A stretch of 61,747 nucleotides of DNA, counting the filler. It is 4 parts of 4 records of this genome, joined end to end, with 100 filler letters (N's around TTAATTAATTAA, not from the genome) between each part and the next. Parts side by side here need not be neighbours in the genome. Positions count along the whole stretch, not along the records: positions 1 to 25,425 come from SRR31156797_21667; 3 more parts are not named here. One strand, written 5' to 3'. This document shows, piece after piece, positions 2,820-50,985 of this stretch. The position numbers were made by a program, and so were the translations under genes. The notes beneath the pieces were generated by a model. It did no database searches. It saw only the letters and a list, made by a program, of their open reading frames with translations, and was not told where the DNA came from. Position 1 is the stretch's first letter. Each line of letters opens with the position of its first letter.

Positions 2820-3883
2820 TGAACGAATTTGTTTTAAAAAATATATACAAGAGCATGGGACCTTACGGGGTCCTGGAGCATATCGATCTTACCATGGAGA
2901 AAGGCGAGCGGGTCTGCCTCCTGGGCCCTTCGGGATGCGGCAAGACCACGTTGCTTCGCATTGCCGCGGGCCTGGAACAGCCCGATGCCGGGGATGTGAT
3001 CTTCCGGGGACGAAGCCTGCTTGACATTCCTCCCCACAAGCGCAACTTCGGCATGATGTTCCAGGATTTCGCCCTGTTTCCCCATCGGAACGTGTTTGAC
3101 AACATCGCCTTCGGCCTCGAGATGAAGAAGCGTTCCCGACGCGAGATCACCGACCGGGTCCATGGGATGCTGGAGCTGGTCAATCTTGAAGGGTACGGCA
3201 AACGGCGTGTGGAGGCGCTTTCTGGTGGCCAGCGCCAGCGGGTGGCCCTTGCCCGGACCCTGGCCCCCGGACCCGATCTGGTGATGCTGGACGAACCCCT
3301 GGGGTCCCTTGACCGCAGGCTCAGGGAGCGGCTCCTGGCAGACCTGTGCGCGATCCTGACCCAGACCGGGGCCACCACCATTTTCGTGACCCATGACCAG
3401 AACGAGGCCTTTGCCGCGGCGGACCGCATCTGTATGATGAACCAGGGGAGGGTTCAACAGATCGACACACCAGAAAATCTTTATGCCAATCCGTCAACCC
3501 CCTGGGTTGCGGATTTTCTTGGGTTTCAGAACATTATAAAAGGAAGGAGGGCAGGGGAGGACAGGATTGAGGCCGGGGGCGCCGTTTTTTATCCGGAACA
3601 GGCCATGGATGATAAAGCTAACACCATGGAACCGGTGTTTCTGCTGCTTCTGCCGGATGCCGCCACCCCTGTCACCGCCGGGGAGTATGAGGGGCTCCCG
3701 GGTAACCGGGTCAGGGGCGTTCTTACGGACCGCTTTTTCCAGGGAAGCTATCAGAAGATTTCCATGGAAACTGGTGCCCATGGGCGCTTGGTCTTTGAGA
3801 TGCCCGCCACCGTGATCCTTCCCAAACCCGGGGAGCCCCTTTTCCTGAAGATCGATCCCAGGGGATTAAGGCTGCTCGGTTAG
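2816..3883 (+). CDS. thiQ: ABC transporter ATP-binding subunit (ThiQ/PotA-like)
   Basis: Walker A GPSGCGKT, signature LSGGQRQR, Walker B VMLDEP, H-loop VTHDQ; in operon with thiBP. Confidence 0.85.
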   Translation: MMNEFVLKNIYKSMGPYGVLEHIDLTMEKGERVCLLGPSGCGKTTLLRIAAGLEQPDAGDVIFRGRSLLDIPPHKRNFGMMFQDFALFPHRNVFDNIAFGLEMKKRSRREITDRVHGMLELVNLEGYGKRRVEALSGGQRQRVALARTLAPGPDLVMLDEPLGSLDRRLRERLLADLCAILTQTGATTIFVTHDQNEAFAAADRICMMNQGRVQQIDTPENLYANPSTPWVADFLGFQNIIKGRRAGEDRIEAGGAVFYPEQAMDDKANTMEPVFLLLLPDAATPVTAGEYEGLPGNRVRGVLTDRFFQGSYQKISMETGAHGRLVFEMPATVILPKPGEPLFLKIDPRGLRLLG

Positions 3884-5194
3884 GACCGATGCGATATCTC
3901 CCCTTGCGAGCATGATGGCCAGGATGGCGACGCTATGGCTGTAATCGGCGTCCGACAGCCGGCGCTCGGCCGTGACAAGCAGGGTGTTTGCGTCCATCAT
4001 GTCCACGCTGTCGGCCATGCCGTAGGTGAACTGCATCTTGACCGCATTGAAATTCTCCCGGGCGGATTTGAGCTCATCCTTCAATGTTGATTGAACGCTG
4101 ATGGTTGCTTCATAGTTGAGCCAGGCCTGCTTCGCCTCGAGCAGGATCCGTTTCTTTTCCGATGCCAGGGTGTGGAGGGCTTTTCTTTCATCAGCCCTGG
4201 CCTGTTTGATGTCGGCGTCCCTGAGACCGCCGTCGAACAGGGTAAAGGTAAGGGTGGCGCCGATGGAGGTGTCCTCGGTGGTGGAGCTGCCGGAAGCGGG
4301 TTCGTCAAATTCAGACCGGGTGTGGGCATACCCTCCTTCCAGGGCCAGGGTGGGCCAGTAGGCGCTCTGCTCGAACTTCACCGTTTTTTGGGCAATTTCC
4401 AGGGCTTTCTGGGCCGCCAGGATTTCGGATCTTTTTTCCAGGGCATCCTGTTCGAGTGCTTCAAAGGAATAAACAAAGGGGGTAAACCGGGTTTCGCCCC
4501 CTTCCAGGAGCATGAAGCCGTCCTGTATGGTAACGAGGTTCTGCAATGATGCCCTCACAAGGCTCAGGTCGTTTTTCGCTATTACAAGCTGTGTTCTGGC
4601 ATTTGAGAGCTGGGCCTCTGCCCGGTAGAGGGCTGTTTTTGTCACGTCCCCCACCTTGAGTCGCTCGTTTACCGCGGTCCTGTGCTTTTCAAGCCTTTCC
4701 ACATCGGCCTGGGCGATCTCCAGGGCCCGCTTGCGGCTCAAAATTTGAAAGTAGGCGGAGGCCACCTGGAACACATAGTCGTTCCTGACGGCCGTAAGGA
4801 TCCATTGGCTCCGGTCGATGCCGTCACGGGTGATGTTGAGGGCGATCAGTTCCTTGCCGTTGAGGGTAAAGGACTGGTTCAACCGGACGCCCCGGGAGGT
4901 CTGGTCGGGATTCTTGGTGTCCGGCTCCCTGTAGGCAAGGTAGGAGCCAAAGGCGGTGGCCCTGGGCATCAGCACGGAGAGCGCCCGTCTCTTCTCCTCC
5001 ATTGCAATCACAAGGTCGTTTTCCGCAAGCTTGATCTGTTCAGCCGTCTCAAGGGCCTTTTGGCAAAGATCAACTATGGAATAGGCCGTGTCCCCGGTTG
5101 CCGGGAGCGGATTGGAACAGGCGGTGCCGAACGGGAAAATCAGTGCAAGAATCAGTAGCAGCGGCAGCGGCAAAAAGCAATAGCGGTTCATCAT
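3866..5194 (-). CDS. TolC-family outer-membrane efflux protein
   Basis: Signal peptide from MMNRYC; two OEP repeats (QVASAYFQIL...ERLKVG; YWPTLAL...TLFDGG...QFTYGMAD). Confidence 0.88.
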   Translation of the reverse strand: MMNRYCFLPLPLLLILALIFPFGTACSNPLPATGDTAYSIVDLCQKALETAEQIKLAENDLVIAMEEKRRALSVLMPRATAFGSYLAYREPDTKNPDQTSRGVRLNQSFTLNGKELIALNITRDGIDRSQWILTAVRNDYVFQVASAYFQILSRKRALEIAQADVERLEKHRTAVNERLKVGDVTKTALYRAEAQLSNARTQLVIAKNDLSLVRASLQNLVTIQDGFMLLEGGETRFTPFVYSFEALEQDALEKRSEILAAQKALEIAQKTVKFEQSAYWPTLALEGGYAHTRSEFDEPASGSSTTEDTSIGATLTFTLFDGGLRDADIKQARADERKALHTLASEKKRILLEAKQAWLNYEATISVQSTLKDELKSARENFNAVKMQFTYGMADSVDMMDANTLLVTAERRLSDADYSHSVAILAIMLARGDIASVLTEQP

Positions 5195-5210
5195 GGAAAA
5201 ATCCTTCAAT

Positions 5211-6008
5211 CTATTTAAGCGGCAGGTTTTTCTTGGCCACCCATTGGATCCATTCATACTGTTCCTTTGTAAGCACCTCTTTTTTTTCATCCACAAAGGT
5301 GAGCAGCTCTTTTGCGTTTTTAAACACCACTGAGTAGAACCCCTTGGCATAGGGACCATGGCCGATCAGGGAGATAGCGCCCTTGCCCTCGACGCCGATG
5401 AGCATCTCGTGGTTGGAAAACACCTTCAGGTCGCCTGCGCCGGATATGGTGCCGTATTTTTCCAGCTGCATTTCACGATGGACGAAAAATCCCAGGCTGA
5501 CCACAAGCACCAGGATGATCGCGGAGGCGAATTTCAGGGTGCGATTGTAGAGCAGGGGATGGAATAGATTGTTGAAGGTGATGGGCTTGGAGGAATGGAT
5601 GGCGTGCTGGAGTGCTTTTTCCTTGGCCAGAAAGGGCTTTACCACCATGCCGGTAAAGGATTCAACTTCGCTTCGGGCCGCCTGGTCCAGGGGATTGACC
5701 ATGGCCAGCTTCAGCACGTTGTTCTTTTCCATGCCCAGGGGGATGGCGCCATAGCGTTTGCAAAGATAGCGGGGAAGCTTGTCCGTCGCCTCCCTGGGAA
5801 GCGTGCCGCTGAGATCGGCGATGGGGATGCCGTGCTGGTCCGAGAGGGCGCTGAACAGCTCTTCATCCCTGATCAGCCCCATCTGTATCAAAATCTGGCC
5901 AAGGCGCCGGTTGCTGCCGGCTTGAATTCGCAGGGCCGAGTCAATTTTCTCAGAAGAAATCAGCTTTTTTTGGATCAAAATCTGACCTAACGTCTGTTTT
6001 TGCACCAT
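5211..6008 (-). CDS. MshEN/GspE-N domain membrane protein with no ATPase; predicted c-di-GMP receptor
   Basis: Tandem motifs TLGQILIQKKLISSEKIDSALRIQ and RLGQILIQMGLIRDEELFSALSDQ, then a GspE-N core (LAMVNPLD), one TM helix and a small C-terminal domain; AGGAGG before ATG 6008. Confidence 0.8.
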   Translation of the reverse strand: MVQKQTLGQILIQKKLISSEKIDSALRIQAGSNRRLGQILIQMGLIRDEELFSALSDQHGIPIADLSGTLPREATDKLPRYLCKRYGAIPLGMEKNNVLKLAMVNPLDQAARSEVESFTGMVVKPFLAKEKALQHAIHSSKPITFNNLFHPLLYNRTLKFASAIILVLVVSLGFFVHREMQLEKYGTISGAGDLKVFSNHEMLIGVEGKGAISLIGHGPYAKGFYSVVFKNAKELLTFVDEKKEVLTKEQYEWIQWVAKKNLPLK

Positions 6009-6098
6009 GGAATCCTCCTGTTCGTAGAAAGGTTTATTATTCATTACTATAAACAGTGATCATTATCAATGGTGATGTTCTAATTTTCCGCCGGGGAA

Positions 6099-6773
6099 TT
6101 AAAATGCCCCACGGGAAAAGGTGTATACCGAAATTGAAAACAGTGCCAGATTGCCGAGCATATGGATGATAACGGGCGCGGCAATGCTCTTGGACCGCTC
6201 GAACGCCAGGGCGAAGACAAGGCCGCCAATGATCTGAAATAAGGGAATTCCCGCAGTCCCGCCATGGCAGAGGGCAAAGATAAAGGTGGTCATGGCCACG
6301 GCCAGGGGAACGGAAAAGCGCCGCAGGTATCCGTAGATGATTCCCCTGAAGAAAATCTCCTCCGCCACCGGGGCGACCAGGCCGCCGGTGATGAAAAAAA
6401 GGATCAACTCCCTTCCCTTGAACGGAATGGGGGCACTTAGCATCTTCAGGGGATCGATTCCGGAGAGAAAGAGTCCCCCCAGGGCTGCGGCAACCACCAG
6501 GCCGAACACCCCGGACCAGATAAGGCCGACCCGGATTCCCCGGCCAAGGTGCTCCCTTGTCATGCCCGCCAGGGCCGGCCCCCGGGAGTGAGACCTGAGA
6601 ATCAGTACCAGCAGGAGCGCCTGGATCACCCTTAATATAAGGGTCTTCTCCAGGGGCGAAAATGAAAACGGCAACCCGGGGAGGGGCTGGGCAGCCACAA
6701 GCTCGCAAATAAATACGGTGGCCAGGGATAGAAAGAGCAGCCTGCTGAAATTATGTTCATTATGTCCTGTCAT
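6099..6773 (-). CDS. CPBP/CAAX (Abi/Rce1-like) intramembrane glutamic endopeptidase
   Basis: Motifs EEIFFRG, FALCH and IIHMLGN; ATGA overlap with the upstream gene. Confidence 0.9.
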   Translation of the reverse strand: MTGHNEHNFSRLLFLSLATVFICELVAAQPLPGLPFSFSPLEKTLILRVIQALLLVLILRSHSRGPALAGMTREHLGRGIRVGLIWSGVFGLVVAAALGGLFLSGIDPLKMLSAPIPFKGRELILFFITGGLVAPVAEEIFFRGIIYGYLRRFSVPLAVAMTTFIFALCHGGTAGIPLFQIIGGLVFALAFERSKSIAAPVIIHMLGNLALFSISVYTFSRGAF

Positions 6774-8272
6774 GGCCTGCACCTTTTAAAGGCCTGCCAG
6801 GCGTATTGCTGCTCGTACCAGTGGGGACTGGTTTCAAGGATTTCCCTGAACAGTGCCCGTGCCTTTCGTCCCCGGTCCAGGCGGGAAAGTCCCCGGATGG
6901 CGGCGCACCTGACGTTCAGGGCCGGGTCTTTCATGAGCGCCTTTAAAAGATGTACGCTGTCAGGCCGCCGGACCCGGGCCAGGGCATTGGCCAGCCAGTA
7001 CCGTTCCGGGGTGGTGCCCGTTTTCAGGCGGGCCACGGCCGTGGGATAATTCCAGATATTCCTTTTCTCCCGGCTGAGGTGACGCAGGGCCTCCACCCGG
7101 ATCCCGGGATTTTCCGAAGAGAGACGCTCGGCCAGGGTTGATGACGTTTCCGGCGCCATGGGCTGGACCGTCCAGACCAGGATCAATGGCAGAAGACCTG
7201 TGAGGAGTCCCCCTGCCGGGGCTGCAAGGACCGGGGGAAGAAAAATGCCGCCGATCCCTTTTGCCGAAACAAAGAAAACCATAAGACTGAAAATGGGCAG
7301 GGCCGTCACCAGGCCCCAGAGGCAGAGCCGGCGGAATCCCTCCCCCGTATCCGCTTTTTGGGAGAAGGCTTCGAGGTGGGGGGTCGGTGAAGAAAGAAAA
7401 TCTTTCAACCCCACCATGACGCCGTTGCCGGAAAAGAACGGGTTTAAGAATTGCGGGACCGGACTCCGGGATTTAAGGACAAAATTCCGGGAGTCGGTGG
7501 CTTTGTCCAGGATGAGATCGGCGGAGGGGGCATGGTCCACGGTGAGCCAGCCAAACCGGGCCAGGATTTTTTCCATCCTTTGCCGCCCGGCAATATCCGG
7601 ATGGATCCAGCAGGGCTTGATCACTTGCTTCCAGGGGGACTGGATCGCCTGGCTGGCCGAGGGGGTATGCCGGTAATAATAACGGACAATGGATTCCCCC
7701 GGTAGATTGTCAAAGAGAAGATGATCCCTGAGCTTGAGAAAGACCCCCGGGTCCGCCTGGGTCGCCAGAATGGTTCCCCCGATGCAGAGGGCGGCCAGGA
7801 AGGAAAACAGGCTGCCCAGTGAAACTGTCCTTCCTTTGGTTGGAGGAGAGGACGGCATGGCAATAAAAACGACCGGGGGAATCACAAGGGTGAATGCCAA
7901 TGCCTTCAGGGAGCTAAGCAGGCCGTGGTCGAGAATGAAAAATAGGTTGCAAAGGAGAAAAAGCAGGATAAAGCAAGTGGTCCGGGGCCATTTTTGTTTG
8001 ATTGCAAGGTGAAGGCACCGGCAGGCCGGAAGGGAGATCATCGTGACAAAAAGGCCCGCGGTCACGACCAGGAATTGGGCCGGGAAAAAGGCCGATGAAA
8101 ATCGGTCCAGGTTTTGAAGCACCAGGGCATTGGGCACCACCAGATGGCCTGCCCGGCACATGGCCAGGACGGCTTCTTTTAAATCAAGGTTGGCGGCCCG
8201 TACCAGAAAAAATGCAATGGTCTCCGATGCGGCAAGGCCCGAAAGTAAGGGTATTACAAGCTGTTGAACCAT
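6770..8272 (-). CDS. Polytopic membrane protein with C-terminal HEAT repeats
   Basis: Several TM segments, a soluble loop, then HEAT-like repeats (LSSENPGIRVEALRHL; LMKDPALNVRCAAIRGL). Confidence 0.65.
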   Translation of the reverse strand: MVQQLVIPLLSGLAASETIAFFLVRAANLDLKEAVLAMCRAGHLVVPNALVLQNLDRFSSAFFPAQFLVVTAGLFVTMISLPACRCLHLAIKQKWPRTTCFILLFLLCNLFFILDHGLLSSLKALAFTLVIPPVVFIAMPSSPPTKGRTVSLGSLFSFLAALCIGGTILATQADPGVFLKLRDHLLFDNLPGESIVRYYYRHTPSASQAIQSPWKQVIKPCWIHPDIAGRQRMEKILARFGWLTVDHAPSADLILDKATDSRNFVLKSRSPVPQFLNPFFSGNGVMVGLKDFLSSPTPHLEAFSQKADTGEGFRRLCLWGLVTALPIFSLMVFFVSAKGIGGIFLPPVLAAPAGGLLTGLLPLILVWTVQPMAPETSSTLAERLSSENPGIRVEALRHLSREKRNIWNYPTAVARLKTGTTPERYWLANALARVRRPDSVHLLKALMKDPALNVRCAAIRGLSRLDRGRKARALFREILETSPHWYEQQYAWQAFKRCRP

Positions 8273-8294
8273 GGATCTCGCTTCTGTTTAAGGA

Positions 8295-8792
8295 TCAGGG
8301 CCGGAATTCGATCTTGACCCTGCCGCTCATCTTGACATGTACCTCGCCCCCTTCGACCTTGAATCCTCCCAGGCCGAAAAGCCCGATTCCCGATTCGACC
8401 GGGCTTGAATACACGTCGGTATAGGCAAGCTGCTCACCAGGAATTTGGGGTTCATCCGCAGAGGTATATTCCATTTCAAAATGTTTCCAGCCCTCTTCAG
8501 GGGGATTGGCTTCAATCTTTCGATAGACCTCTTCAAAGGATTGCACGTTTTTTTTCAGGTTCTTGAGCTGGTTTGCATAGGCCAGGTTGAATGAAAGGGC
8601 CTTGTCCAGGTCTGCTTTGGTGCCCCCGGTGCTGGCATAGGCTTCGGAAAAACCGATCATGTTTCCTAAAATTCCGGTTTGGCCGGTGACTGAGCCCATC
8701 TCCTTTTTTGTAAGAGCTTTCATTTCCGCAAACACGGTTTGAATAAAAAGTACGGCGGCCAGCACTGTGATGATGTTTTTGAAGCTTTTCAT
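8295..8792 (-). CDS. Small secreted DUF6160/FilA-like paralogue (divergent arm)
   Basis: Signal peptide, then AEMKALTKKEMGSVTGQTG; C-terminal strand MSGRVKIEFRP resembles LGGRLEIAPH of 9626-10543; AGGAG before ATG 8792. Confidence 0.6.
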   Translation of the reverse strand: MKSFKNIITVLAAVLFIQTVFAEMKALTKKEMGSVTGQTGILGNMIGFSEAYASTGGTKADLDKALSFNLAYANQLKNLKKNVQSFEEVYRKIEANPPEEGWKHFEMEYTSADEPQIPGEQLAYTDVYSSPVESGIGLFGLGGFKVEGGEVHVKMSGRVKIEFRP

Positions 8793-9084
8793 GAACAACT
8801 CTCCTGCTTTTGCCCTTCTTTATTATGGACACAGTTTCTCTTTTGTAAATGGTGTTGAAGTATAGCGGTATTGGCTGGACCGGTCAAACGAAATCGTTGG
8901 GAAAGGTTTTTGCCGGTCCTTGATCGGGGGAGGGGAGGGGGAAATGAAGAACTGATTGCCGATTTTGGAATGAAATCCGTTTTATATGAAAAAAACACTA
9001 AATGAATCTCATTTAATTTGTTTAATAATTTCAACAAGATCCGATTCTCGGTAAAAAAACACATAAAAAGTTATGTTTTTTTGC

Positions 9085-9116
9085 TTGACATCTGAAGTGG
9101 AATGGTTTTTTATAAG
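9085..9116 (+). promoter_or_regulatory. Candidate sigma-70-type promoter for the rightward operon
   Basis: Perfect TTGACA at 9085-9090; TATAAG at 9111-9116 with a long 20-nt spacer. Confidence 0.4.
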
Positions 9117-9319
9117 AACACCGTTCAGGAAAGTACATACCGATCGAAAAGAAGTAAATCGATCAAAAAAGAGGGATATCGATCAAATTAGTATAAATCC
9201 CTTTAGTATCAGATGCAACTCTTTCGCAACCGTTTAATTGTTAAAAAACTTTTACAAGATGAGGATGGTCAATTCACATTCTGTTCAAGTTAAGTTTTTT
9301 ATAAGAACAATGTTCAGGA
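9105..9319 (+). repeat. 26-bp direct repeat (9105-9130 and 9294-9319) with a GAAC-N3-GTTC core
   Basis: GTTTTTTATAAGAACACCGTTCAGGA vs GTTTTTTATAAGAACAATGTTCAGGA, 24 of 26 identical. Confidence 0.8.
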
Positions 9320-9509
9320 TCAAGCGCAGGAGTTATTATCGTAGATCGGAGTTTCATTCAGGGCTGACCCCATTGAACGCCTGCAGCAGCCGGGCCCCAA
9401 AACAATTTGGGAAACGACTTGCAAACCAACCGGAGAAAGGAGGTGGGGAAACGTCAATCCGGAGCAATTGGTTCATCAGCATTGTTCGCAGGTTCAAGCT
9501 TTTAGCACC

Positions 9510-9600
9510 AAAGCCAGAAAAGCCAAACCGCAGGTAACTGCGGGACGGAAAGCCACGAGTCCGGGAACGGGTCCCGGATGGTCGGGCTGCCTCAGGAAAG
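9510..9600 (+). ncRNA. c-di-GMP-I (GEMM-I) riboswitch
   Basis: AAGCCAAACCGCAG-GTAA-CTGCGGGACGGAAAGCCACGAGTCC...GGATGGTCGGGCTGCC shows P2 with a GNRA loop, the GAC bulge, AAAGCC junction and P3; it ends ~25 nt before the start of the major subunit gene. Confidence 0.88.
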
Positions 9601-9625
9601 TTCATTAACTTTTAGGAGGAAAAAA

Positions 9626-10543
9626 ATGAAAAAGCTTACTGGTCTTATCGCAGCAGCCGGAATCGCATTTGCCCCCATGTCTTCTTCAGCCCTTGAAGCC
9701 CTTACAGACAACGCCATGAACGATGTCACCGCCCAGGCCGGCGTCAGCATCGCCATTGATGATGTAGTTCTGTTCCAGAGCGTCGAATATACCAAATACA
9801 TTGATGAGGACGGTATCACCGAAACTCCGACCTGGCTGTACGAAGACTCAACGACTGCAACTGATCCCCAGTATGAAACAAGTGCTGATGCCGCCGCCCT
9901 GGTAATCGGTTCCAAAGAGACCCTGAAGGTCCTCAACGGCATCTGGACAGGCAAAGAGAATGCCGCTTCAGCTACAGCAGGTGAGCTAATGGCAAACGGA
10001 TGGGAAGGTACCGAGAATTTTGGCGCCACCGGTTACCTGAACAAAGACCTCAACCTCGACGGTGTCTTTGATGTATTTGTTCCTTCCGAGCTCAAGATTG
10101 ATATAGGTACCTGTACAACTCTGTCCAGGGCAGCCCAGACCAAGCTTGGTATCGTTACAGCTGCTCATCTGGAAGACGGTTCCGGCAATATCGTTCTTGT
10201 TGATCCGGTTGAGGGTTACTTTATTGACGCCGACGGCGACGATGCCTTTGACGCCGGTGAAGCATTCGGCGGAACTCCGGTCACCATCCCCGATGCATAC
10301 CTCGTTAACGGTATTACCGCCAGCGGCGCCGCTCTTGACAGGGCCGACGCCACGGTTACTGGTGTCGTAATCGGTCTGCCCACACTTGAGATCACAACTA
10401 CTTCCGATTCCTATGATATCGGAGTCGAGATGGTTTCTCTTGATGACCAGAACCTGAACAGCGGCAAAAAGTTCATCAAGATCGAGAAGGGCGACAGCCT
10501 CATGGCCATCCTCGGTGGAAGACTTGAGATCGCTCCTCACTGA
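9626..10543 (+). CDS. DUF6160/FilA-like secreted protein; predicted major filament subunit
   Basis: Strong AGGAGG RBS, signal peptide, ALEALTDNAMNDVTAQAGVSIAID, GVVIGLPTLEI and terminal GGRLEIAPH; acidic, beta-rich composition; followed by hairpins. Confidence 0.78.
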   Translation: MKKLTGLIAAAGIAFAPMSSSALEALTDNAMNDVTAQAGVSIAIDDVVLFQSVEYTKYIDEDGITETPTWLYEDSTTATDPQYETSADAAALVIGSKETLKVLNGIWTGKENAASATAGELMANGWEGTENFGATGYLNKDLNLDGVFDVFVPSELKIDIGTCTTLSRAAQTKLGIVTAAHLEDGSGNIVLVDPVEGYFIDADGDDAFDAGEAFGGTPVTIPDAYLVNGITASGAALDRADATVTGVVIGLPTLEITTTSDSYDIGVEMVSLDDQNLNSGKKFIKIEKGDSLMAILGGRLEIAPH

Positions 10544-10600
10544 TCCCATTGATATGCCGGGAATATCCTGAATATTCCGGATAATACTCAATAAGATCAC

Positions 10601-10640
10601 TCATCCCCTTCACCCCCAAAAGGTGAAGGGGATGATTCTT
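10601..10640 (+). terminator. 14-bp hairpin after the major subunit gene (attenuator or mRNA stabiliser)
   Basis: TCATCCCCTTCACC-CCCAAAA-GGTGAAGGGGATGA followed by TTCTT; a second hairpin lies at 10557-10580. Confidence 0.7.
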
Positions 10641-10704
10641 ATCTCCCCCAGAAAAACAGCTTGAAGCCCCATGGCAACAGGTTTTTTCGACACCGGAGGT
10701 GATG

Positions 10705-11736: not shown

Positions 11737-11773
11737 ATTAACCTTAAAAAGAAGGTGATTGAAAAGGAAGATC

Positions 11774-12451: not shown

Positions 12452-12566
12452 TTTCATATTGTCACGACTTTTTCTTAACTGTGATTTTATCACCTGACAG
12501 TGATCTTTTAACATTACAGTGTTTTTTTTGCTTTACAAAGTACCCATCCCGTGTATATAGATAATC

Positions 12567-13316: not shown

Positions 13317-13337
13317 CAATGAAACGGAGAAGGCACA

Positions 13338-18184: not shown

Positions 18185-18233
18185 TTGATTGCGGTGCGAC
18201 GCTGATGATGACCCTAATATACGGAATTGATGC

Positions 18234-19136
18234 ATGAAAAAATATCTTATCTCCTGCCTGTTAATCTGCTGCCTTGCGCAACCCCTTTACGCGACATCAA
18301 ACACCCATTTTCCACGCCTGTTTACAAATGAAACAGACAAAAGCATGTTCCTGATCAGCCTGGAATACGACCAGCAGGAGAACACCTTTGAGGACCAGAC
18401 GGAAAGGGAAGTTGAAGAGGACAGTATCGGGGACAACCGCATTTATACAAAAACGCGGTCGTCCGTGAATACCTATGCCTATGCCGGCGTAAAGGTCGGT
18501 TTCAAGTACAAACGGCTGCCGCTCTTTTATCTTACGGCGGGCTATGCCGAGGCCGACGTGGATTTCACGTTTGAGGACACCCTTACGGATAACAAATTTA
18601 CCTATAACATCGACACCACCTTTAAAAGCGATTATTTCCCGGTCTATGGCGGAGGCATCAGCGCCCAGCCGTTTAAAAAAGAAATATTTGAAAACCATAA
18701 CCTGCATATCGGCCTTGATTTGAGATACAGGTATTTTGATTTTGACGCCAAGAAAAGAGCCGGTTCGGAAGATACGGAATGGTACGATATGACCTATGAG
18801 TCCGAACTCCATGAAGTCCAGCTGACCCTGGTGGGGGCTGTTGACGGTTTTTCATGGAGCCCCTTTTCCGGCCTGAACCTTTCATTCACACCCTACGCCG
18901 GGGCCAAGGTGTCCCATTTTTTCGCAGATGAAATTTTTACTGACAGCGGCAACGTTATCAGCGGATACGGATTTCTAAATGACCCCATTTATTACAAGGA
19001 GGAGATCGAGGTGTCAAACCACATCTCTTTTTTTGGAGGGGTCGGTATTGAAATGACAAAGAACATCATTCTTGGACTTGAGATTCGAACTGGAGATGAA
19101 GATGGTTATGCATGCAATGTATCGTTCAAATTTTGA
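18234..19136 (+). CDS. Predicted outer-membrane beta-barrel protein of unknown family
   Basis: Signal peptide, alternating aromatic strands, terminal NVSFKF beta-signal. Confidence 0.65.
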   Translation: MKKYLISCLLICCLAQPLYATSNTHFPRLFTNETDKSMFLISLEYDQQENTFEDQTEREVEEDSIGDNRIYTKTRSSVNTYAYAGVKVGFKYKRLPLFYLTAGYAEADVDFTFEDTLTDNKFTYNIDTTFKSDYFPVYGGGISAQPFKKEIFENHNLHIGLDLRYRYFDFDAKKRAGSEDTEWYDMTYESELHEVQLTLVGAVDGFSWSPFSGLNLSFTPYAGAKVSHFFADEIFTDSGNVISGYGFLNDPIYYKEEIEVSNHISFFGGVGIEMTKNIILGLEIRTGDEDGYACNVSFKF

Positions 19137-21300
19137 CCCGGAGTTCCTTGGAAAAATCATCAACCCGATTGCCCTTTTTACGCTGGTCTTTTTTCTTGCC
19201 ATCCCCTGTCTGGCGGAAGAAACCCTCAGAAGCATCACTTTTCAGAACGGATGGCCGGAAGTGCCCCGGAGAAATATTACTTCCGACGCGGACGGAAACC
19301 TTCTTTTCTATACGATCGGGGATACTCTCGTGATTCTCGATGGCGCCGCCCTGACGGAAAAATCCCGCATTCTGTTAAAGACCAAAAAAGGAATCACCGG
19401 TATTGTCTATGACAGCGGAAACCAAATGGTTTACGCCTCCTGCGGCAGCGGCGGACTCCAGGTTATCGATGTGGCCGATCCCATGGCTCCCCAATTGATG
19501 GGAGAGCTTCTCAAGGATCACAAGGCCAATAACATTTACGGGTCAGCCGTTGATTACCTGGATAACCGGGTTTATCTGGCGGATTTTTATTTCGGTCTTC
19601 GGATAATCGATGTGAGCAACCCCTCCAATCCCAATCAGTCGGGATACCACGAGGAGTTCTCCGAATACGCGGACGAAGATAATTCATTCTCAGGAGGCCA
19701 CCTCAATGTCAAGGTGGTTGTTCTCAATGATACCAAATACGCGTTTGTCCTGGATTATTACTATGGTTTGAGAGTTTTTGACGTTACCGTGGGTACCAAA
19801 CCGGTCCTGGTGGACAGGATAGACATGAGAACCTCCCAGTACTATGGCCAGGTTTCCCTGGTGAAGGATTTTGCCGTTGACAGCAATTATGTCTACATTT
19901 CCGATGCGACCTACGGCCTGACCATCCTGTCCATTTTTTCCGATGCCGCAAATCCCCTGACCGTCAATCTTGCCAAGGCCGGTCAGATCGTTACCCCCGG
20001 CGCCGCCTCCTCTGTTTCTCTGTATAATAACATGGTGTATGTGGCTGACGGTTTGAAAGGTCTTTATGTTGTGGATGTCTGGGACAGGACCGACCCGGTC
20101 CATGCCGGGACCTACGAGACGAGCGGGGTCTACGGCGTACATGCTGCCGGCGGGAGAATTTTCGTGTCGGATACCACGGACGGGCTTGTCACTGTCGCCA
20201 AGACAGGCACCTTTGTCTATTCGAAAACCGGGTCCTACGAGCCCCCCTGTGATGCGGATGCCGTCTTTGTAAATGACAGCTATGCCTATATTCTGGACAA
20301 TGACGATTCAAAGGAGGGGCTGCGCATCATCGATCTTACAACTGAAGGAGAGTACCAGCTGTTTGGACGGGTTTTGACTCCCGGCGAGGCCAATGAACTG
20401 TTTGTACAGGGATCCCATGCCTATATCGCCGACGGATCGGCCGGTGTCTCTGTTGTCGACATCAGTGACAAAAGCGTGCCTGTCCTGATTGACGAAGATG
20501 GGTTGAATGATGAAGACGGGTTTAAGGGGGAAGCACCCGAGGGGGCGGTTTCGGAGATTTCATCGGTTTCTGATATCACCCTGCGGGTCAAAAATGAAGA
20601 GAAGTTTGTCTATTTTACCGATACCAACCGGGGACTTTTCATTGCAGGGGCCGATGACCAGGAGCGCTTGTTTCATAAGGGCAGCATATACATCGAAAAT
20701 GCCGGGGCCGTTGCCCTGTATCAACACAGGGGAAATTCCGAAGAAGAGAAACTGTACGCCCTGGTTGTCAACGGTACAGGGCTTGTGGTGGTTGATGTCA
20801 CAGACCCCCTGAACCCCTCCGGGCCGGTTTCCTCATTTGAGACCCCTGGTGATGCCCTGGATATCGGTGTCAAGGATAACTTTGCCGTTGTGGCGGATGG
20901 AGACGGGGGCATTGTTCTCATCGACCTTTCCGATCCCGCGAAACCTGAAGGGGTGACCACTTATGCCACGGAGGGAACGGCTGAGGCGGTTTCCATCTTC
21001 CAATCCTACATTCACGCGGCAGTCGGTACCAATGGCCTGCGGATATTGGGCATTGACGAAACCGTGCCTGCCACTATCTCAGAGATCACAGACGTCAACA
21101 CACCCGGTTACGCCTCATCCGTTTTTGTGGCCGGCAACGATACGGCCCGGCTTACCTATGTCGGGGACGGCAAGGGAGGCTTGCTCTCTTTTCTCCACAG
21201 CGACAGCTATACCGACGGAATAGATGAAAAACCCTTTACGGACGACACCCACGACACCGGTTGGGACCGGATAGACTGTTTTATTTCAACCCTTTTTTAA
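19102..21300 (+). CDS. LVIVD-repeat beta-propeller surface protein with C-terminal CFISTLF
   Basis: Many GL.[IV][IV]D[VI]S[DN]P repeats; signal peptide; acidic linker then C-F-I-S-T-L-F-stop; exact start uncertain. Confidence 0.8.
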   Translation: MVMHAMYRSNFDPEFLGKIINPIALFTLVFFLAIPCLAEETLRSITFQNGWPEVPRRNITSDADGNLLFYTIGDTLVILDGAALTEKSRILLKTKKGITGIVYDSGNQMVYASCGSGGLQVIDVADPMAPQLMGELLKDHKANNIYGSAVDYLDNRVYLADFYFGLRIIDVSNPSNPNQSGYHEEFSEYADEDNSFSGGHLNVKVVVLNDTKYAFVLDYYYGLRVFDVTVGTKPVLVDRIDMRTSQYYGQVSLVKDFAVDSNYVYISDATYGLTILSIFSDAANPLTVNLAKAGQIVTPGAASSVSLYNNMVYVADGLKGLYVVDVWDRTDPVHAGTYETSGVYGVHAAGGRIFVSDTTDGLVTVAKTGTFVYSKTGSYEPPCDADAVFVNDSYAYILDNDDSKEGLRIIDLTTEGEYQLFGRVLTPGEANELFVQGSHAYIADGSAGVSVVDISDKSVPVLIDEDGLNDEDGFKGEAPEGAVSEISSVSDITLRVKNEEKFVYFTDTNRGLFIAGADDQERLFHKGSIYIENAGAVALYQHRGNSEEEKLYALVVNGTGLVVVDVTDPLNPSGPVSSFETPGDALDIGVKDNFAVVADGDGGIVLIDLSDPAKPEGVTTYATEGTAEAVSIFQSYIHAAVGTNGLRILGIDETVPATISEITDVNTPGYASSVFVAGNDTARLTYVGDGKGGLLSFLHSDSYTDGIDEKPFTDDTHDTGWDRIDCFISTLF

Positions 21301-21312
21301 AGGCCTTGGTTT

Positions 21313-23319
21313 ATGAGAATCTTCGTTCTTCTGGTTTTGGTTTGCATGGTCGCCTCCCCCGGGTGGGGAGCGTCCATGTCCATTAAAGCATCGGACCGGT
21401 ACATCCTGGCAGGGGAAGAGGTGGAGTTCACGCTCACCTATAAAGCAGATCAAATTCCAGAAGGCGGAGATGGGAGCAACCTGCCCGATCGATTAATCGT
21501 AAGTCTTGAAATCGACCTGGACCAAAGGCACGTCCATACCGAAGAGTTTCCCATTGAGCCGGGCGAAACAATTGAGCTCAAATATTCTTATACCTTTGGA
21601 ACGTCCGGGTACTATGATGCCGAGGCAACATTCAAGTGGATGTACGTTAACGAATACGGGCAGGAAACCTTTGACAGGAAAAAATTGAAACCGGTAACCA
21701 TCGGAGTCGCCAACTGGGTGTTTACAGCCGACGGTACCCTTGGCTGCATCGAATCCACCCCCCTGGTAAGTATAGACAATACAACATTGTACGTCGGCTC
21801 TGAAGACCATTTCCTCTATGCCCTGAATATCACGGATGGAACGGAAAAATGGCGGTTTACCACCAATGGGGCCATCAATTCCACACCGGCCCTGGACAGT
21901 GGGGGAAACATCTATTTCGGATCTGACGACGGCTTTGTCTATTGCCTGAAGGATTTGGGTGAAACATACGAGGAAGTATGGAAACAATCGGTAAATGGGC
22001 ATGTCTACTCTTCTCCGGCCCTTGATGAGGCGGCGCGGCTGCTATATATCGGCTCCACGGACGCCCATCTCTACGCCCTGAAGCTGAATGACAAGGGCAA
22101 AGAGGCCTGGCGTGTCAAGACCAGGGGGAAAATCACCTCCTCTCCGGTAATCGGAGCCGATGGCACCGTCTATGTGGGCTCCCTGGATAATCACCTTTAT
22201 GCGGTGTATCCGGAGGATCTGAACGACGAATCGAAAAACTGGCGGTTTGACGCCCAATCACAGATTGTCGGTTCTCCCGCACTGGACAAGGACGGAACCA
22301 TCTTTTTCGGAACAACCGCCTTTGAAGGAGGGATAAACGACAAGAACGGTTTTTATGCCCTGTCCTCCAACGGAAATAAGAAATGGTTCATTCAGCATAA
22401 CAGCGGTTTTTACTCCACTCCGGTCATCGGAGCGGACGGAACCATTTGTATCGGCTCGTTCAACAACATGCTGTACGGCATTGACAGAAAGGGCGGGGGC
22501 CTTTCCATGTTCAAAAAATTCTCCGACGACCTCGCCGCTTCGGTGGCGGTAGGAACCAATGATCATATATTCTGCGGAAGCAAGGAAGGGATTGTCTACG
22601 GGCTGGACCTGATGAACGGCAATTCCTATAAAGGCCGGAATGAATTCTGGAACTACGATGTGCAAACGCCGATTACAACTTCTTCCCCCGTCTTACATAA
22701 CGGACATATCTATTTTGGAACCTGCGGGTATGACCATGGTTCCATCTTTTCCCTGGCCGCCTCAAAGAGGAGTGGAAACCAAAGCCAAATTGGTGTGGAA
22801 ATCGAAGAGGAATCTCCTTGGCCTCTTTTCAGGGCCAATTCCCGGAACACCGGGAAAACGAAGTACACCCGGGAAACTATTGCTCCGGCTGTTGTTTCCG
22901 TGGATCCGCCCCCTGGGGAAACCCATTTTGATCTGTCGAGAAGAACCATCACGGTCACCTTTTCCCGCCCCATGAACCCGGAAAGCATCTACAAACCGGC
23001 GATGGATACCAAGGAGGGATATTACGGCCTGACCCTGGAACCCTTTGATTCAGGACCGGAAGAATTCGATATCAATCTGGATGACCCTTACAAATGTGTA
23101 TTGACATTGCCGGAAAACGAATCCTTTAAACCTTACATCACCTATACCGCCACGCTTCTTTCCAAAGCGAAATCCGAAGATCAAAATAGTTTTACGGACA
23201 ATGCCATACTGTATAACTACACCTGGTCTTTTTCCGCCATGGAAGAAGAAGAGGTAAGCTATGATCACAGCCCTTCATCGCCATGCTTCATTTCTCAACT
23301 TTTTGGAAAAGGAAAATAG
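21313..23319 (+). CDS. PQQ-binding-like beta-propeller plus Ig-like (Big_5-type) protein with C-terminal CFISQLF
   Basis: Repeats SSP.[IL]..DG.[IV]Y.GS.D..LYA; WPLFRANSRNTG; APAVVSVDP...ITVTFSRPMNPES...YTWSF; ends CFISQLFGKGK. Confidence 0.8.
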   Translation: MRIFVLLVLVCMVASPGWGASMSIKASDRYILAGEEVEFTLTYKADQIPEGGDGSNLPDRLIVSLEIDLDQRHVHTEEFPIEPGETIELKYSYTFGTSGYYDAEATFKWMYVNEYGQETFDRKKLKPVTIGVANWVFTADGTLGCIESTPLVSIDNTTLYVGSEDHFLYALNITDGTEKWRFTTNGAINSTPALDSGGNIYFGSDDGFVYCLKDLGETYEEVWKQSVNGHVYSSPALDEAARLLYIGSTDAHLYALKLNDKGKEAWRVKTRGKITSSPVIGADGTVYVGSLDNHLYAVYPEDLNDESKNWRFDAQSQIVGSPALDKDGTIFFGTTAFEGGINDKNGFYALSSNGNKKWFIQHNSGFYSTPVIGADGTICIGSFNNMLYGIDRKGGGLSMFKKFSDDLAASVAVGTNDHIFCGSKEGIVYGLDLMNGNSYKGRNEFWNYDVQTPITTSSPVLHNGHIYFGTCGYDHGSIFSLAASKRSGNQSQIGVEIEEESPWPLFRANSRNTGKTKYTRETIAPAVVSVDPPPGETHFDLSRRTITVTFSRPMNPESIYKPAMDTKEGYYGLTLEPFDSGPEEFDINLDDPYKCVLTLPENESFKPYITYTATLLSKAKSEDQNSFTDNAILYNYTWSFSAMEEEEVSYDHSPSSPCFISQLFGKGK

Positions 23320-23336
23320 GGAGGATTACATTGACA

Positions 23337-25425
23337 ATGTTTGTTCCGAAAAAAAGAGATTTCCTGCTGGTATTGATCCTTTTTTTATCGCTTATCCTGG
23401 GGTGCAACGGTGGTGACGGCGGAAGCAATCATACCCCCTCTGACGTTGGGCCGGAACCGAGCACCGATACCTTGACCGTAAGAACATTTGAGTACACCCC
23501 CTCATACAAGACCGTTCTGCTTGAGCCGTCGGATTTTAAACATCTTCAGATGACAACTTCAGGATCCCGGATCATTGTGCTTCCCACTTCGCGATTGTAT
23601 AACACCATTGAAAAGTGGGACATCCTCATGGCAGGTATTTCCGATCATTTTCCCCTGGGACTTTTCGGCTGTGTCTATTCCATTGTTGTGTCACAGGATT
23701 CAATGGAATTGTCACTGGAAGGTCCACCTCTTGAAAACGCGTTCAAGTTTTTAAAAATGGATCTGGATAAAACCGTTACCCTGTCCGACACCATTCAAAA
23801 ACAGGTCTATCAGGGCGTTGATATCCAGGACAGGGACGGCAAATTTTATCTTACCCTGGACGCCGTGATCTATGATCATGACAAGGACCCGGACACACTC
23901 GGAGATCAGGTCAGGGTAAAGGGAACCATCGAGTTTGAGCTGGTATTTCAACTTTACGTGGATATCAACCTCTGGACAATTCAATCTGTGTCCTTCAAGC
24001 CCGTGCTGAAAGAGACAGCCCGGCTCACTTTCTTGTCCGACCTTGCCCATGAAGTGGATGAAACAATGGTGCTGGCTGAACTCCAGACAAAGCCTTTTTC
24101 CCTGGGCCCCCTTGTGCTGGCGCCGGAATTCAAGCTGTTGCTGGACACCAAGGGTAAATTAAGCACCCAGGCACAGGCAGGGATGGACTGGACACATATT
24201 TATGAACAGGAACTTTCCTATGACGGGGCAAACCTTGTTAATCACTGGAATGACAGTGAAGAACCCGATATTTCCTTTCACACCTCGAATTTTAAGGCAG
24301 CTGTTGATTTTAAGACGGAATTCACATCTGAATTTGACTTCAGGATATTTGGGATTTCTATTATCCCAAGCAAAAATAAGAAGCTTTTCAATTTCCTTGG
24401 AACCATAAAAACAGACAGCGACCGTATCTGTATGGAGCAGGTGTCCGGGGTTGAAACTTCCAGCCAGGTAACACTGAATTTCTTCTGTGGCCACAATCTT
24501 GATGCCGAGGATCTGGCTTTTTCACATACGAGTGAAATCAAGACCTCTGACGAAACCTGTTCGTACCTTATGGAATACCATCCAGTTGCCAGGGCAGGGA
24601 AGGATCGAAGTCTCTTAGAAGGAAGTGAGGTTATCCTTGACGGGAGCGAATCCTATGATCTGACTAACCCCTATGATCTGGATGACGACATTCTTTCATA
24701 CGAGTGGAAACAGACCAACCGGAATAATGAGTCCGGGCCCATTGTTGAGTTGACCAATATTACTCCGGCAGTTGCGTCGTTCAACGCGCCCGTGGTGAAC
24801 GCCAAGGGCCAGGTGCTCACCTTTGACCTCGAGGTCACCGATTACAGCGGTAACGTGGATCGGGATACCGTGAATATCACCATAAAGGACAAGGATGGAT
24901 TACCTGAGATAAAGGGAAGCCTTTCAGGAAAAGCCGTGGATTATGCAACAGGTGAACCTTTATCGGATGTGTCTGTTGAAGTGTTTGAAAAGAGAACCGA
25001 AATGCCCGTGGAAGAATCCATTGGATTTACCACCACGGACAGCAAGGGTAAGTTCCTGATAGACACACTTTCTCCGAACTGCAGGGTCGCTTTCAGCAAA
25101 AACGGACATATTCCGGTCAGTCTGGATGGAATTACCATCCGGTCCGAAACGGATACAGAGCTGGGAAAGATCATAATGCTGGATGATTCCCACTCCGGGC
25201 GGGGCGAGATATCCATCTCTCTGATCGATGCGATTTCAGGTGAAGAGATCCCCCAGGCAAATATCTCTTTGAAACAATATACGGATGGGAAAAACATCGA
25301 TACGGCGACCACGGATTCGGAAGGACGGTGCACCTTTAAAAAACGCTGGGCAGACGCTTATTTTGCCACAGCCAAAGGGAATGGTTATAAAACAACGACT
25401 TTCAGGGTTGCCGCCTATGAAGATG
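23337..25425 (+). CDS. Large lipoprotein with PKD-like and carboxypeptidase-regulatory-like domains (3' truncated at contig end)
   Basis: Lipobox LILGC then a Gly/Ser linker; PVARAGKD...LDGSESYD...YEWKQ; D..[TS]GE[PE][LI] repeats; runs into the linker. Confidence 0.7.
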
Positions 25426-50984: not shown

Positions 50985-50985
50985 T

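Follow-up and report, generated by a model that had tools for sequence, protein, structure and literature searches.

The closest described system is the Fil fimbriae of Acinetobacter, reported for Acinetobacter sp. Tol 5, in which FilA was identified from sheared surface material and long curved 'Fil fimbriae' were seen on cells (PMC3498257), although the link between FilA and the fibre was 'deduced' in the Tol 5 papers. NCBI names four families, FilA–FilD (NCBIfam NF050077–NF050080), for what remains a poorly studied route so far seen only in Acinetobacter. The Fap functional-amyloid pathway of Pseudomonas follows a related logic, combining the outer-membrane barrel FapF with FapD, a periplasmic C39 protease whose catalytic Cys is needed for secretion but whose substrate is unknown (PMC5557850). 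C39 domains also cut double-glycine leader peptides in the ABC exporters of bacteriocins and competence peptides. Here we analysed a stretch of 61,747 nucleotides, filler included (the window), from a sulfate-reducer-like genome, and find a gene cluster, predicted to be switched by the biofilm signal c-di-GMP, that most likely trims, exports and assembles small secreted proteins into a surface polymer by a Fil-type route. A sequence-only reading had placed a riboswitch and 16 genes here in two divergent arms, and our searches recover all of them at those positions. The arms diverge from an 827-base intergenic region, 8799–9625, and the genes within each arm are tightly packed or overlap:

3866–5194 (−), TolC-family outer-membrane factor (OEP 3.6e-49; TIGR01844 1.3e-41, below its cut-off)
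5211–6044 (−), MshEN-domain membrane protein, a predicted c-di-GMP receptor (MshEN 58.1 bits; NF053729 57.6 bits against a cut-off of 38)
6099–6782 (−), CPBP (Rce1-like) intramembrane glutamic protease (Rce1-like 2.6e-19)
6770–8272 (−), polytopic membrane protein with C-terminal HEAT repeats (HEAT_2)
8295–8798 (−), short DUF6160 paralogue of 167 aa (27.2 bits) at the head of the left arm
8799–9511, shared intergenic region with a 26-base direct repeat (9105–9130 and 9294–9319) and promoter-like sites on the minus strand
9512–9594 (+), c-di-GMP-I riboswitch aptamer
9590–9619 (+), predicted hairpin, the inferred expression platform of an ON switch
9626–10543 (+), DUF6160 subunit 1 (45.2 bits), the likely major subunit: signal peptide, leader and mature β-rich unit
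10601–10635 (+), terminator-like hairpin with a 14-pair stem, a pattern match only
10699–11736 (+), DUF6160 subunit 2 (30.9 bits)
11759–12451 (+), DUF6160-like subunit 3 (17.4 bits against a cut-off of 27)
12567–13316 (+), periplasmic C39 cysteine peptidase, FilB-like, with a hydrophobic N terminus read by eye
13338–14912 (+), FilC-like outer-membrane transporter: SPOR domain (28.7 bits), proline-rich and acidic linker, coiled-coil-like stretch (read by eye) and FapF-type barrel (Phenol_MetA_deg type)
14839–16668 (+), FilD-like FadL/TodX-family outer-membrane barrel (Toluene_X 5.4e-35)
16649–18184 (+), PD40 (TolB-like) β-propeller with a signal peptide (PD40 6.4e-19)
18234–19136 (+), probable small outer-membrane β-barrel with no Pfam family, which resembles outer-membrane β-barrel clusters only by language-model features (atlas feature score 0.97–0.98)
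19072–21300 (+), LVIVD-repeat propeller protein (LVIVD 4e-44; choice-of-anchor B 2.5e-13) that ends in CFISTLF (21277–21297)
21313–23319 (+), PQQ_2/BamB-like propeller plus Big_5 domain that ends in CFISQLFGKGK (23284–23316)
23283–25425 (+), PKD plus CarboxypepD_reg protein, probably a lipoprotein (a lipobox-like LILGC is read by eye)

Three points of that earlier reading needed correction. The barrel at 13338, described there as FapF-like, is much closer to FilC; the third of the secreted paralogues falls below the Pfam cut-off, although it has the same N-terminal motif as the others; and position 25425 is not a gene end but an assembly gap, the last gene being cut by a run of N that starts at 25426.

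Profile searches match the core of the right arm to NCBI's Fil models far better than to the Fap models (FilB 1.4e-53 against FapD 3.2e-33; FilC 9.5e-54 against FapF, NF058560, 5.2e-17), with FilD at 1e-73 and the FilA model matching the N terminus of subunit 1 at 4.5e-7. All of these hits lie far below NCBI's curated cut-offs (182 against 475, 183 against 630, 248 against 970, and 30 against 220), and the products are therefore distant relatives, not equivalogs. The FilC-like barrel also matches the solved structure of FapF (PDB code 5o65, E 6.8e-10 over residues 330–520) and, as in Fap, has a coiled-coil-like stretch before it, and the FilD-like barrel shows similarity to the PorV family (8.5e-13). 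The peptidase keeps a Q/C/H/D catalytic set, with Q58, C64, H150 and D166 conserved in at least 95% of 23 orthologues; it shares the catalytic Cys and His with the Fap protease and has the same catalytic residues as the C39 domains of the bacteriocin and competence-peptide exporters. The four kinds of gene occur in the order of the Fil names, but the locus differs from Fil in having three to four subunit paralogues instead of one named FilA, a SPOR domain on FilC, an added PD40 propeller and propellers with a C-F-I tail, and predicted control by a c-di-GMP riboswitch. It differs from Fap in lacking FapA, FapB, FapC or FapE-type subunits, in the obvious leader carried by its subunits, and in its extra FadL-like barrel and PD40 gene.

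We next compared 22 related loci, which were chosen through FilC. C39, FilC and FilD are kept together in 22 of 22, and a DUF6160-type ORF is present in 21 of 22. The PD40 propeller is a frequent partner (16 of 22, and also in L045, a satellite cassette), but the other additional genes are not: LVIVD is in 7 of 22, the PQQ-like propeller and the orphan barrel are each in 2 of 22 (the barrel in L030 and in the close relative L001), and the lipoprotein is in 1 of 22 (L001). The FilC family is found in 39 of 201 genomes of the class and in 19 of 301 of the phylum.

The riboswitch matches Rfam RF01051 over its full length at 62.4 bits (gathering score 35) and is the only Rfam hit in the window. 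As in c-di-GMP-I (GEMM-I) riboswitches such as Vc2, the alignment shows the canonical G, A and C at the three positions taken to be the ligand contacts. The aptamer is kept in L001 with changes on both strands of one helix, and the intergenic region is 87% identical between the two. The minimum-free-energy fold of 9505–9640 (z −3.93; 0 of 200 shuffles fold as well) pairs CCUC, from the 3′ strand of aptamer stem P1, with the Shine-Dalgarno GAGG, and these bases are conserved in L001. Aptamers of the c-di-GMP-I clan occur in the window, in 10 of the 22 related loci and in L045, making 14 arrays, each directly upstream of a DUF6160-type ORF (12 confirmed by profile and 2 by motif only). Related loci use arrays of two or three aptamers that include the GGC and UAU variants, whereas 12 of 22 have no riboswitch in the stretch examined. 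The DUF6160 family is not named as a target gene in any paper found.

Each of the four DUF6160 proteins has a Sec signal peptide followed directly by a leader of roughly 17 residues, L-x-x-[LM]-[ST]-D-x-E-[LM]-x-x-[IV]-T-G-Q-x-G. A regular expression built on this motif picked out 42 ORFs, in most of which the motif starts right after an A-x-A-type signal-peptide end, although at least two rows are chance matches. The leader segments match positions 18–44 of the Acinetobacter FilA model. The spacing of hydrophobic and acidic positions is that of double-glycine leaders (L-S-x-x-E-L-x-x-I-x-G), but this resemblance is our reading against a consensus: the leader ends in T-G-Q-x-G and not G-G, the −1 position would be Q or the spacing would be shifted, and no double-glycine-leader family matched at E up to 10. 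Here, moreover, the leader follows a Sec signal peptide, and the peptidase is a free periplasmic protein. Subunit 1 has 181 representative relatives and is only 35% identical to its L001 orthologue, while its neighbours are 48–85% identical and the untranslated leader is 87% identical; subunit 3 has orthologues in L001, L002, L015, L016 and L045.

Natural tandem fusions of two and three DUF6160 units indicate where the mature protein may begin. The first unit aligns from profile position 2–10, but inner units that align in full start at position 34–42, mostly 39–40, which is the first residue after the leader; this argues for leader removal and head-to-tail assembly. Ten junctions read ...L-E-I-A-P-H, three residues, G-[MVI]-D-I-x-L-D-D-V, and an AlphaFold2 model of one such protein (pLDDT 69, pTM 0.69) puts a β-hairpin across each junction. 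The model of the single subunit is of middling confidence (pLDDT 68) and has no solved relative (Foldseek best E 0.12; VIA best Z 3.9).

We favour, with moderate confidence, a reading of 9512–25425 as one operon for a Fil-type surface polymer switched on by c-di-GMP. The analysis itself shows a canonical aptamer 31 bases before the first subunit gene, the leader directly after each signal peptide, the homology of the transporter to FapF-type barrels with SPOR and coiled-coil parts, and the C-F-I motif at the end of the LVIVD and PQQ-like propellers; the functional steps that follow are inferred from sequence alone, for this locus as for its Desulfobacteria relatives. In this view, ligand binding closes stem P1 and frees the ribosome-binding site, making an ON switch. 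After export, the C39 peptidase would remove the leader, and the FilC-like barrel, tethered to peptidoglycan, would pass the unfolded subunits across the outer membrane. Outside the cell, the freed N-terminal strand (G-V-S-I-x-I-D-D-V) of one unit would pair with the C-terminal strand (...L-G-G-x-L-E-I-A-P-H) of the previous unit, giving a head-to-tail β-sheet polymer, with subunit 1 as the major unit (in keeping with the terminator-like hairpin after its gene and its divergence from L001) and subunits 2 and 3 as minor ones. The FadL/PorV-like barrel and the PD40 propeller would be assembly or anchoring helpers, and the LVIVD and PQQ-like propellers co-expressed surface cargo, not core parts. 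The model of the tandem protein resembles outer-membrane β-barrels, and a barrel-like or sheet-like oligomer is therefore as compatible with the data as a thin fibre.

The sequence-only interpretation, an undescribed and expanded Fil/Fap-like system that builds a multi-subunit fibre by a route distinct from chaperone-usher, type IV pili and curli, is thus only partly supported. The core assignment, its conserved clustering and the wide recurrence of predicted c-di-GMP control agree with it, and no usher, PapD-type chaperone, pilin or curli family appears among the 16 products. 'Undescribed' is too strong given the Acinetobacter precedent, of the 'expansion' genes only PD40 is common, the left arm is not a conserved part, and that the product is a fibre remains an inference.

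Among alternatives, the one that survives best, though we consider it unlikely, is that the DUF6160 units build a large β-barrel-like or sheet-like oligomer at the outer membrane or cell surface (a pore, tube or coat), which the C39/FilC/FilD module and the C-F-I-tailed proteins would serve. The model of the natural three-unit protein has strands of 17–24 residues, and all of its 50 best VIA matches are outer-membrane β-barrels (13 chains at Z 8 or more; best Z 12.9, but 12.6 Å RMSD); the best, though insignificant, matches of the single-unit model are the long hairpins of pore-forming proteins. However, RMSD values of 7–16 Å and the pLDDT of 69 mean that the likeness may reflect only long antiparallel strands, the C terminus ends in A-P-H and not in the aromatic residue typical of barrels inserted by the BAM machinery, and FilA of Tol 5 was linked to long curved fibres (PMC3498257).

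It is less likely still that the C39/FilC/FilD module mainly exports or anchors the large proteins that end in C-F-I (LVIVD and PQQ-like propellers, Ig-domain giants), with the DUF6160 proteins as adaptors or stalks. The window and 10 of 22 loci hold at least one large ORF (656–1364 aa) with C-F-[IL] in its last 15 residues, and in loci L026, L031 and L032 such a giant lies directly upstream of the C39 gene; PorV, which the FilD-like barrel resembles, carries cargo with a C-terminal tag in type IX secretion. Against this, C-F-I-type hits are spread over the genomes, mostly far from Fil loci, 12 of 22 loci have no such protein in the stretch examined, the riboswitches always precede DUF6160 genes, and a 12-stranded FapF-type pore is, we infer, unlikely to pass folded propellers.

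A Fap-type functional amyloid, in which subunits are secreted unfolded through the FapF-like channel and form cross-β amyloid, is doubtful. The FapF and FapD homologues and the shared peptidase-plus-barrel logic (PMC5557850) speak for it, but beyond the better Fil scores, none of the 16 products hit a Fap subunit family in the Pfam or NCBIfam scans, the subunits are acidic, show no Q/N-rich imperfect repeats by eye and are predicted to have a defined β fold, and the Fap operon as described has no FadL-like barrel and no PD40 gene. Least likely is an uptake route for hydrophobic substrates, with the secreted proteins helping the cell to reach oil or lipid, as suggested by the Toluene_X and Phenol_MetA_deg families, by FilC relatives in Alcanivorax and Desulfatiferula olefinivorans and by the growth of fibre-bearing Tol 5 cells on triacylglycerol (PMC3498257), because no catabolic genes lie in the operon, the C39 peptidase and leader-bearing subunits have no role in such a model, and c-di-GMP control points to a surface or biofilm function.

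The left arm is best regarded as a neighbour, kept only in L001 among the related loci. Its HEAT-membrane/CPBP pair is found in 109 of 201 genomes of the class, elsewhere in the genome; the HEAT-membrane gene is followed by CPBP in 10 of 10 contexts, with no DUF6160 gene nearby in any of the 10, and is probably not Fil-specific. The CPBP protein gives weak hits to the MrtS, MrtJ and myxosortase families, all below their cut-offs. This recalls the sorting of MYXO-CTERM surface proteins by myxosortase, a CPBP protease (PMC11980579), since here too a C-terminal tag with an invariant Cys sits on many large surface proteins and a CPBP-family gene lies next door; however, the C-F-I tail has no transmembrane helix and no basic end, and the link between the pair and the tail is only a co-occurrence lead. 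The short DUF6160 paralogue that heads the arm belongs to the same short class that follows tandem riboswitches in other loci, although no riboswitch was found upstream of it here, and the MshEN protein adds a second predicted c-di-GMP sensor.

The window has one Rfam match at gathering level, a full-length c-di-GMP-I aptamer (RF01051, 62.4 bits against a gathering threshold of 35, model positions 1–87 of 87) that lies in an 827-base gap between two divergent gene sets. Pfam and NCBIfam scans of all 16 products confirm every gene listed by the sequence-only reading, each in its place, and so its observation stands. Three points require correction: the third subunit paralogue falls below the DUF6160 (PF19657) cut-off (17.4 against 27 bits), although it shares the N-terminal motif, whereas the other three paralogues pass (45.2, 30.9 and 27.2 bits); the 'orphan barrel' has no family and is supported only by language-model likeness to outer-membrane barrels; and the last gene is cut by a run of N at 25426, such that the right border is an assembly gap. 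The features with coordinates used below are as follows.

6099–8272 (−): polytopic HEAT-repeat membrane protein followed by a CPBP (Rce1-like) protease
8295–8798: left-arm DUF6160 paralogue
8799–9625: untranslated region before subunit 1, with a 26-base direct repeat (9105–9130 and 9294–9319)
9512–9594 (+): c-di-GMP-I riboswitch aptamer
9626–10543: subunit 1
11759–12451: third subunit paralogue
16649–18184: PD40 propeller

The core of the right arm is Fil-type. NCBI models for the 'putative pilus system' proteins FilB, FilC and FilD match the adjacent C39 peptidase, SPOR-barrel protein and FadL-like barrel at E 1.4e-53, 9.5e-54 and 1e-73, with the Fap models matching much less well (FapD, NF058616, 3.2e-33; FapF, NF058560, 5.2e-17; both below their cut-offs). 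The barrel also matches the solved FapF structure directly (5o65, E 6.8e-10, residues 330–520). All of the Fil scores are far below the curated cut-offs (182 against 475, 183.2 against 630, 248.5 against 970 and 29.6 against 220 bits), indicating distant relatives of the Acinetobacter proteins, and we therefore treat the locus as Fil-type and do not file it as FilABCD. FilA matches only the N-terminal 80–100 residues of subunits 1 and 2 (4.5e-7 and 3.9e-4), with the leader segments matching model positions 18–44. None of the 16 products hit a FapB, FapC or FapE amyloid subunit family in Pfam or NCBIfam, and no usher and PapD-like chaperone, pilin with secretin and ATPase, or CsgA with CsgG appears among them at E up to 0.01. 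The only precedent for surface fibres of this kind is in Acinetobacter sp. Tol 5: Fil fimbriae are long curved fibres on cells grown on triacylglycerol, where FilA was identified by Edman degradation and the fibre link was 'deduced' (PMC3498257, PMC11784438). In a literature collection largely lacking subscription journals, we found no paper on the mechanism, and DUF6160 appeared only in a paper on another topic. FilC relatives (proteins P0281 and P0294–P0299) occur in Alcanivorax and in Desulfatiferula olefinivorans, which degrade hydrocarbons; together with the Fil fibres seen on Tol 5 cells grown on triacylglycerol, this hints at a link with hydrophobic substrates.

One scan of species genomes gave two related loci. 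The first, L001, from a Desulfobacterium MAG, keeps both arms and the riboswitch; the second, L002, from a Desulfosalsimonadaceae MAG, keeps three subunits, C39, FilC, FilD, LVIVD and the PQQ-like gene but has no PD40, no left arm and no riboswitch. The FilC family is in 39 of 201 sampled genomes of the class and in 19 of 301 of the phylum. We fetched 20 more loci around FilC matches and compared them with the window's proteins, giving the following counts.

Features of the 22 related loci (number of loci with the feature)
C39-FilC-FilD together: 22 (by construction for FilC)
DUF6160-type ORF: 21
PD40: 16
LVIVD: 7
PQQ-like propeller: 2
Orphan barrel: 2
Lipoprotein: 1
Left-arm genes: 1 (L001 only)

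A second site in the genome of L001 (locus L045, 5611–9757) holds a satellite cassette of a c-di-GMP-I riboswitch, three DUF6160 paralogues in the same order as in the window and a PD40 gene, with no C39, FilC or FilD; the trio of paralogues and the PD40 gene therefore travel together. The best NCBIfam hit of the window's PD40 propeller is TmcD, a subunit of a sulfate-reducer electron-transfer complex (6.5e-41, 140.6 bits against a cut-off of 440), which is probably similarity between repeats. In 3 of the 22 loci a CheA-like histidine kinase gene lies next to the Fil-type locus (L018 9511–12135, with Hpt, H-kinase_dim, HATPase_c and CheW domains; L019 135–2315 (−) and L021 4268–6310 (−), 46–50% identical). 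We rejected the TolC homologue in L018 as a link, because it sits with an HlyD-type efflux gene.

Association with c-di-GMP riboswitches recurs. Aptamers of the c-di-GMP-I clan were found in the window, in 10 of the 22 loci and in L045, forming 14 arrays of one, two or three aptamers, some scored as the GGC or UAU variants. In all 14 the next ORF on the same strand is DUF6160-type, 12 confirmed by our profile at E up to 1e-3 and two only by the motif. The double and triple arrays, mixing the canonical form with the GGC and UAU variants (L019 2969–3227, L021 7081–7404, L024 11144–11411, L026 9001–9352, L030 10656–10978, L031 11435–11710 and L032 11568–11913), each precede a short DUF6160-type gene (150–190 residues) just downstream of the FilD or PD40 genes. 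The window's left-arm paralogue belongs to this short class, but no aptamer was found before it. A survey notes that tandem c-di-GMP riboswitches are enriched in Thermodesulfobacteriota (PMC12452182). By our own mapping of positions onto the alignment, the window's aptamer has the canonical ligand-contact bases (G20, A47 and C92 in Vc2 numbering: G before the first helix, A after the second and C in the 3′ junction), as opposed to the A20 of cGAMP-sensing aptamers or the GGC and UAU variants, and RF03167 scores 58.5, below its cut-off of 59; we therefore expect c-di-GMP rather than cGAMP as the ligand. The predicted unliganded fold pairs CCUC of the 3′ strand of P1 with GAGG of the ribosome-binding site, from which we infer an ON switch. 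Twelve of the 22 loci have no aptamer in the stretch fetched; in L002, the one close relative that lacks the riboswitch, a LytS-type histidine kinase and a LytTR response regulator (2438–4266) sit in that place, upstream of the subunit genes.

The subunits carry a second leader, recognized from sequence alone. A regular expression built on the motif picked out 42 ORFs from the window and its relatives, a count that reflects the pattern used and includes at least two chance matches. In most of these the signal peptide ends in an A-x-A-type site and is followed at once by L-x-x-[LM]-[ST]-D-x-E-[LM]-x-x-[IV]-T-G-Q-x-G, with G-V-S-I-x-I-D-D-V coming next. By our reading, the spacing of L, S, E, L and I, present in most of the 42 ORFs, equals the double-glycine leader consensus of C39 peptidase substrates, although that consensus ends in G-G, G-A or G-S where the present segment reads T-G-Q-x-G, and no leader family matched at E up to 10. 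The peptidase has a hydrophobic N terminus and keeps Q58, C64, H150 and D166 in at least 95% of 23 orthologues. In Pseudomonas, FapD is periplasmic and its catalytic Cys is needed for secretion, with its substrate still unidentified (PMC5557850).

Natural fusions appear to mark the mature start. A full HMMER search found 181 representative relatives of subunit 1, some of which are two- or three-unit tandem proteins with a single leader (P0170, P0179, P0214, P0231, P0200 and P0203). With our profile, the first unit of these starts at profile position 2–10, whereas inner units that align in full start at 34–42, mostly 39–40, which is the first residue after the leader. Ten junctions read ...L-E-I-A-P-H, three residues, G-[MVI]-D-I-x-L-D-D-V, and 194 of 303 collected proteins (subunit and FilC relatives together) end in a pattern like that C-terminal motif. 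The AlphaFold2 model of one three-unit protein, P0170 (pLDDT 69, pTM 0.69), has a hairpin across each junction. We take this as Rosetta-stone evidence that free units join head to tail once the leader is gone. The same model resembles outer-membrane barrels in the VIA search (best Z 12.9 at 12.6 Å RMSD, all 50 top rows), and the polymer could therefore be tube- or sheet-like rather than a thin fibre. The single-unit model (pLDDT 68) has no solved relative, with a Foldseek best E of 0.12 and a VIA-wide best Z of 3.9; an environmental 'pilus-like' entry, 9xfv_A, appeared at a non-significant E 0.43 and Z 3.8, and the A1 profile matched no PDB sequence at E up to 10. Complex prediction with three copies of mature subunit 1 (residues 36–305) gave no structural model (score 0.00, without controls or our alignment) and says nothing either way.

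Subunit 1, the likely major unit, is followed by a terminator-like hairpin, and is only 35% identical to its L001 orthologue (6613–7293), while the other right-arm products are 44–79% identical and the left-arm products 70–85%. The untranslated region before it, which includes the 26-base direct repeat of unknown role, is 87% identical in DNA to L001 5709–6612. Fast change in an abundant exposed subunit would fit this pattern, which is an inference.

The LVIVD and PQQ-like proteins end in CFISTLF and CFISQLFGKGK. Across the window and 22 loci, 25 of 1033 ORFs of 90 residues or more have C-F-[ILVM] in the last 30 residues. Fourteen of these are large proteins (656–1364 aa) in the window and 10 loci, LVIVD propellers or Ig-domain giants, in which a C-F-I-x-x-[LM] tail is seen by eye, often with a Gly/Ser-rich stretch before the Cys. 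The 14-position NCBI model for a 'CFI-box putative sorting motif' (NF041763, cut-off 15.9 bits) gives no hit to the window's tails at E up to 10, and one relative, in L026, scores 15.3. No paper using the term was found in the literature searched.

We rejected the left arm as a core part of the system. Its HEAT-membrane protein has matches in 109 of 201 genomes of the class, against 39 for FilC, at positions unrelated to the Fil loci. In 10 of 10 contexts (L035–L044) it is followed by the CPBP gene, with a DUF6160-type ORF present in 0 of 10, MshEN in 0 of 10 and TolC in 1 of 10; the pair is therefore an independent, common unit, and the left arm a neighbour of the Fil operon. Still, 35 of 39 FilC-positive genomes have the pair, against 74 of the other 162 (Fisher p 2.4e-7, not corrected for kinship). 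Hits of the C-F-I model in ORFs of 300 residues or more, counted wherever in the ORF they lie, number 27 in five genomes with the pair and FilC, 17 in five with the pair only and 2 in five with neither, although these searches are noisy, with controls giving hits in 10–11 of 14 genomes and reaching the cut-off in 1. A CPBP protease, myxosortase, cuts a C-terminal tag with an invariant Cys in Myxococcus (PMC11980579). The pair may therefore be a CAAX-like system that sorts C-F-I proteins, which is a lead and no more. The left-arm MshEN protein passes the cut-offs for the c-di-GMP-binding domain (PF05157, 58.1 bits against 23.1; NF053729, 57.6 against 38) and would add a protein-level c-di-GMP input.

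Taken together, the interpretation offered by the sequence-only reading is partly supported: its Fil/Fap-like reading of the right arm is supported and sharpened, whereas its claims about the left arm and most of the 'expansion' genes are weakened. Fil fimbriae are already known, having a name and a few micrographs but no mechanism; what these loci add is the leader, the logic of the tandem fusions and the riboswitch link, which make the system directly testable. The analysis itself establishes the gene content, the distant Fil homology, the aptamer match and the recurring position of aptamers before DUF6160 genes, whereas c-di-GMP binding, control of expression, leader removal by the C39 peptidase, export, head-to-tail joining and the formation of a surface fibre are all inferred.

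A bolder and tentative reading is that Fil-type loci define a widespread, uncharacterized outer-membrane assembly pathway of a periplasmic C39 peptidase, a FapF-like channel, a FadL-like barrel and a PD40 propeller, in which Sec-exported subunits would carry a second, double-glycine-type leader whose removal licenses head-to-tail β-strand pairing into a surface polymer. This would be a new pilus class and would also reveal what periplasmic C39 peptidases such as FapD cut; in Desulfobacteria, single to triple c-di-GMP riboswitches would gate the subunit genes, and in the same genomes a CAAX-like C-F-I tail on dozens of surface proteins may be processed by the HEAT-membrane/Rce1-like pair. Pilus and fibre assembly routes in Gram-negative bacteria are few and well catalogued, and these loci offer a testable mechanism, suggest a substrate class for the FapD-like peptidases and link a whole family of unknown proteins, DUF6160, directly to c-di-GMP riboswitches in sulfate reducers, whose biofilms matter for corrosion and for syntrophy. 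The C-F-I tail and its possible sorting pair are a separate lead on how these bacteria dress their surface.

Elsewhere in the window there are three places with two runs of 44 N set 12 bases apart (25426–25525, 49296–49395 and 55478–55577), the first of which cuts the last gene of the operon. A low-GC stretch at 49500–56000 (0.32–0.35 against about 0.52), with an N run at each of its borders, holds a sodium:solute symporter, a 1094-aa sensor kinase with Reg_prop and Y_Y_Y domains and a hybrid kinase/receiver, and may be foreign DNA or a misjoin.
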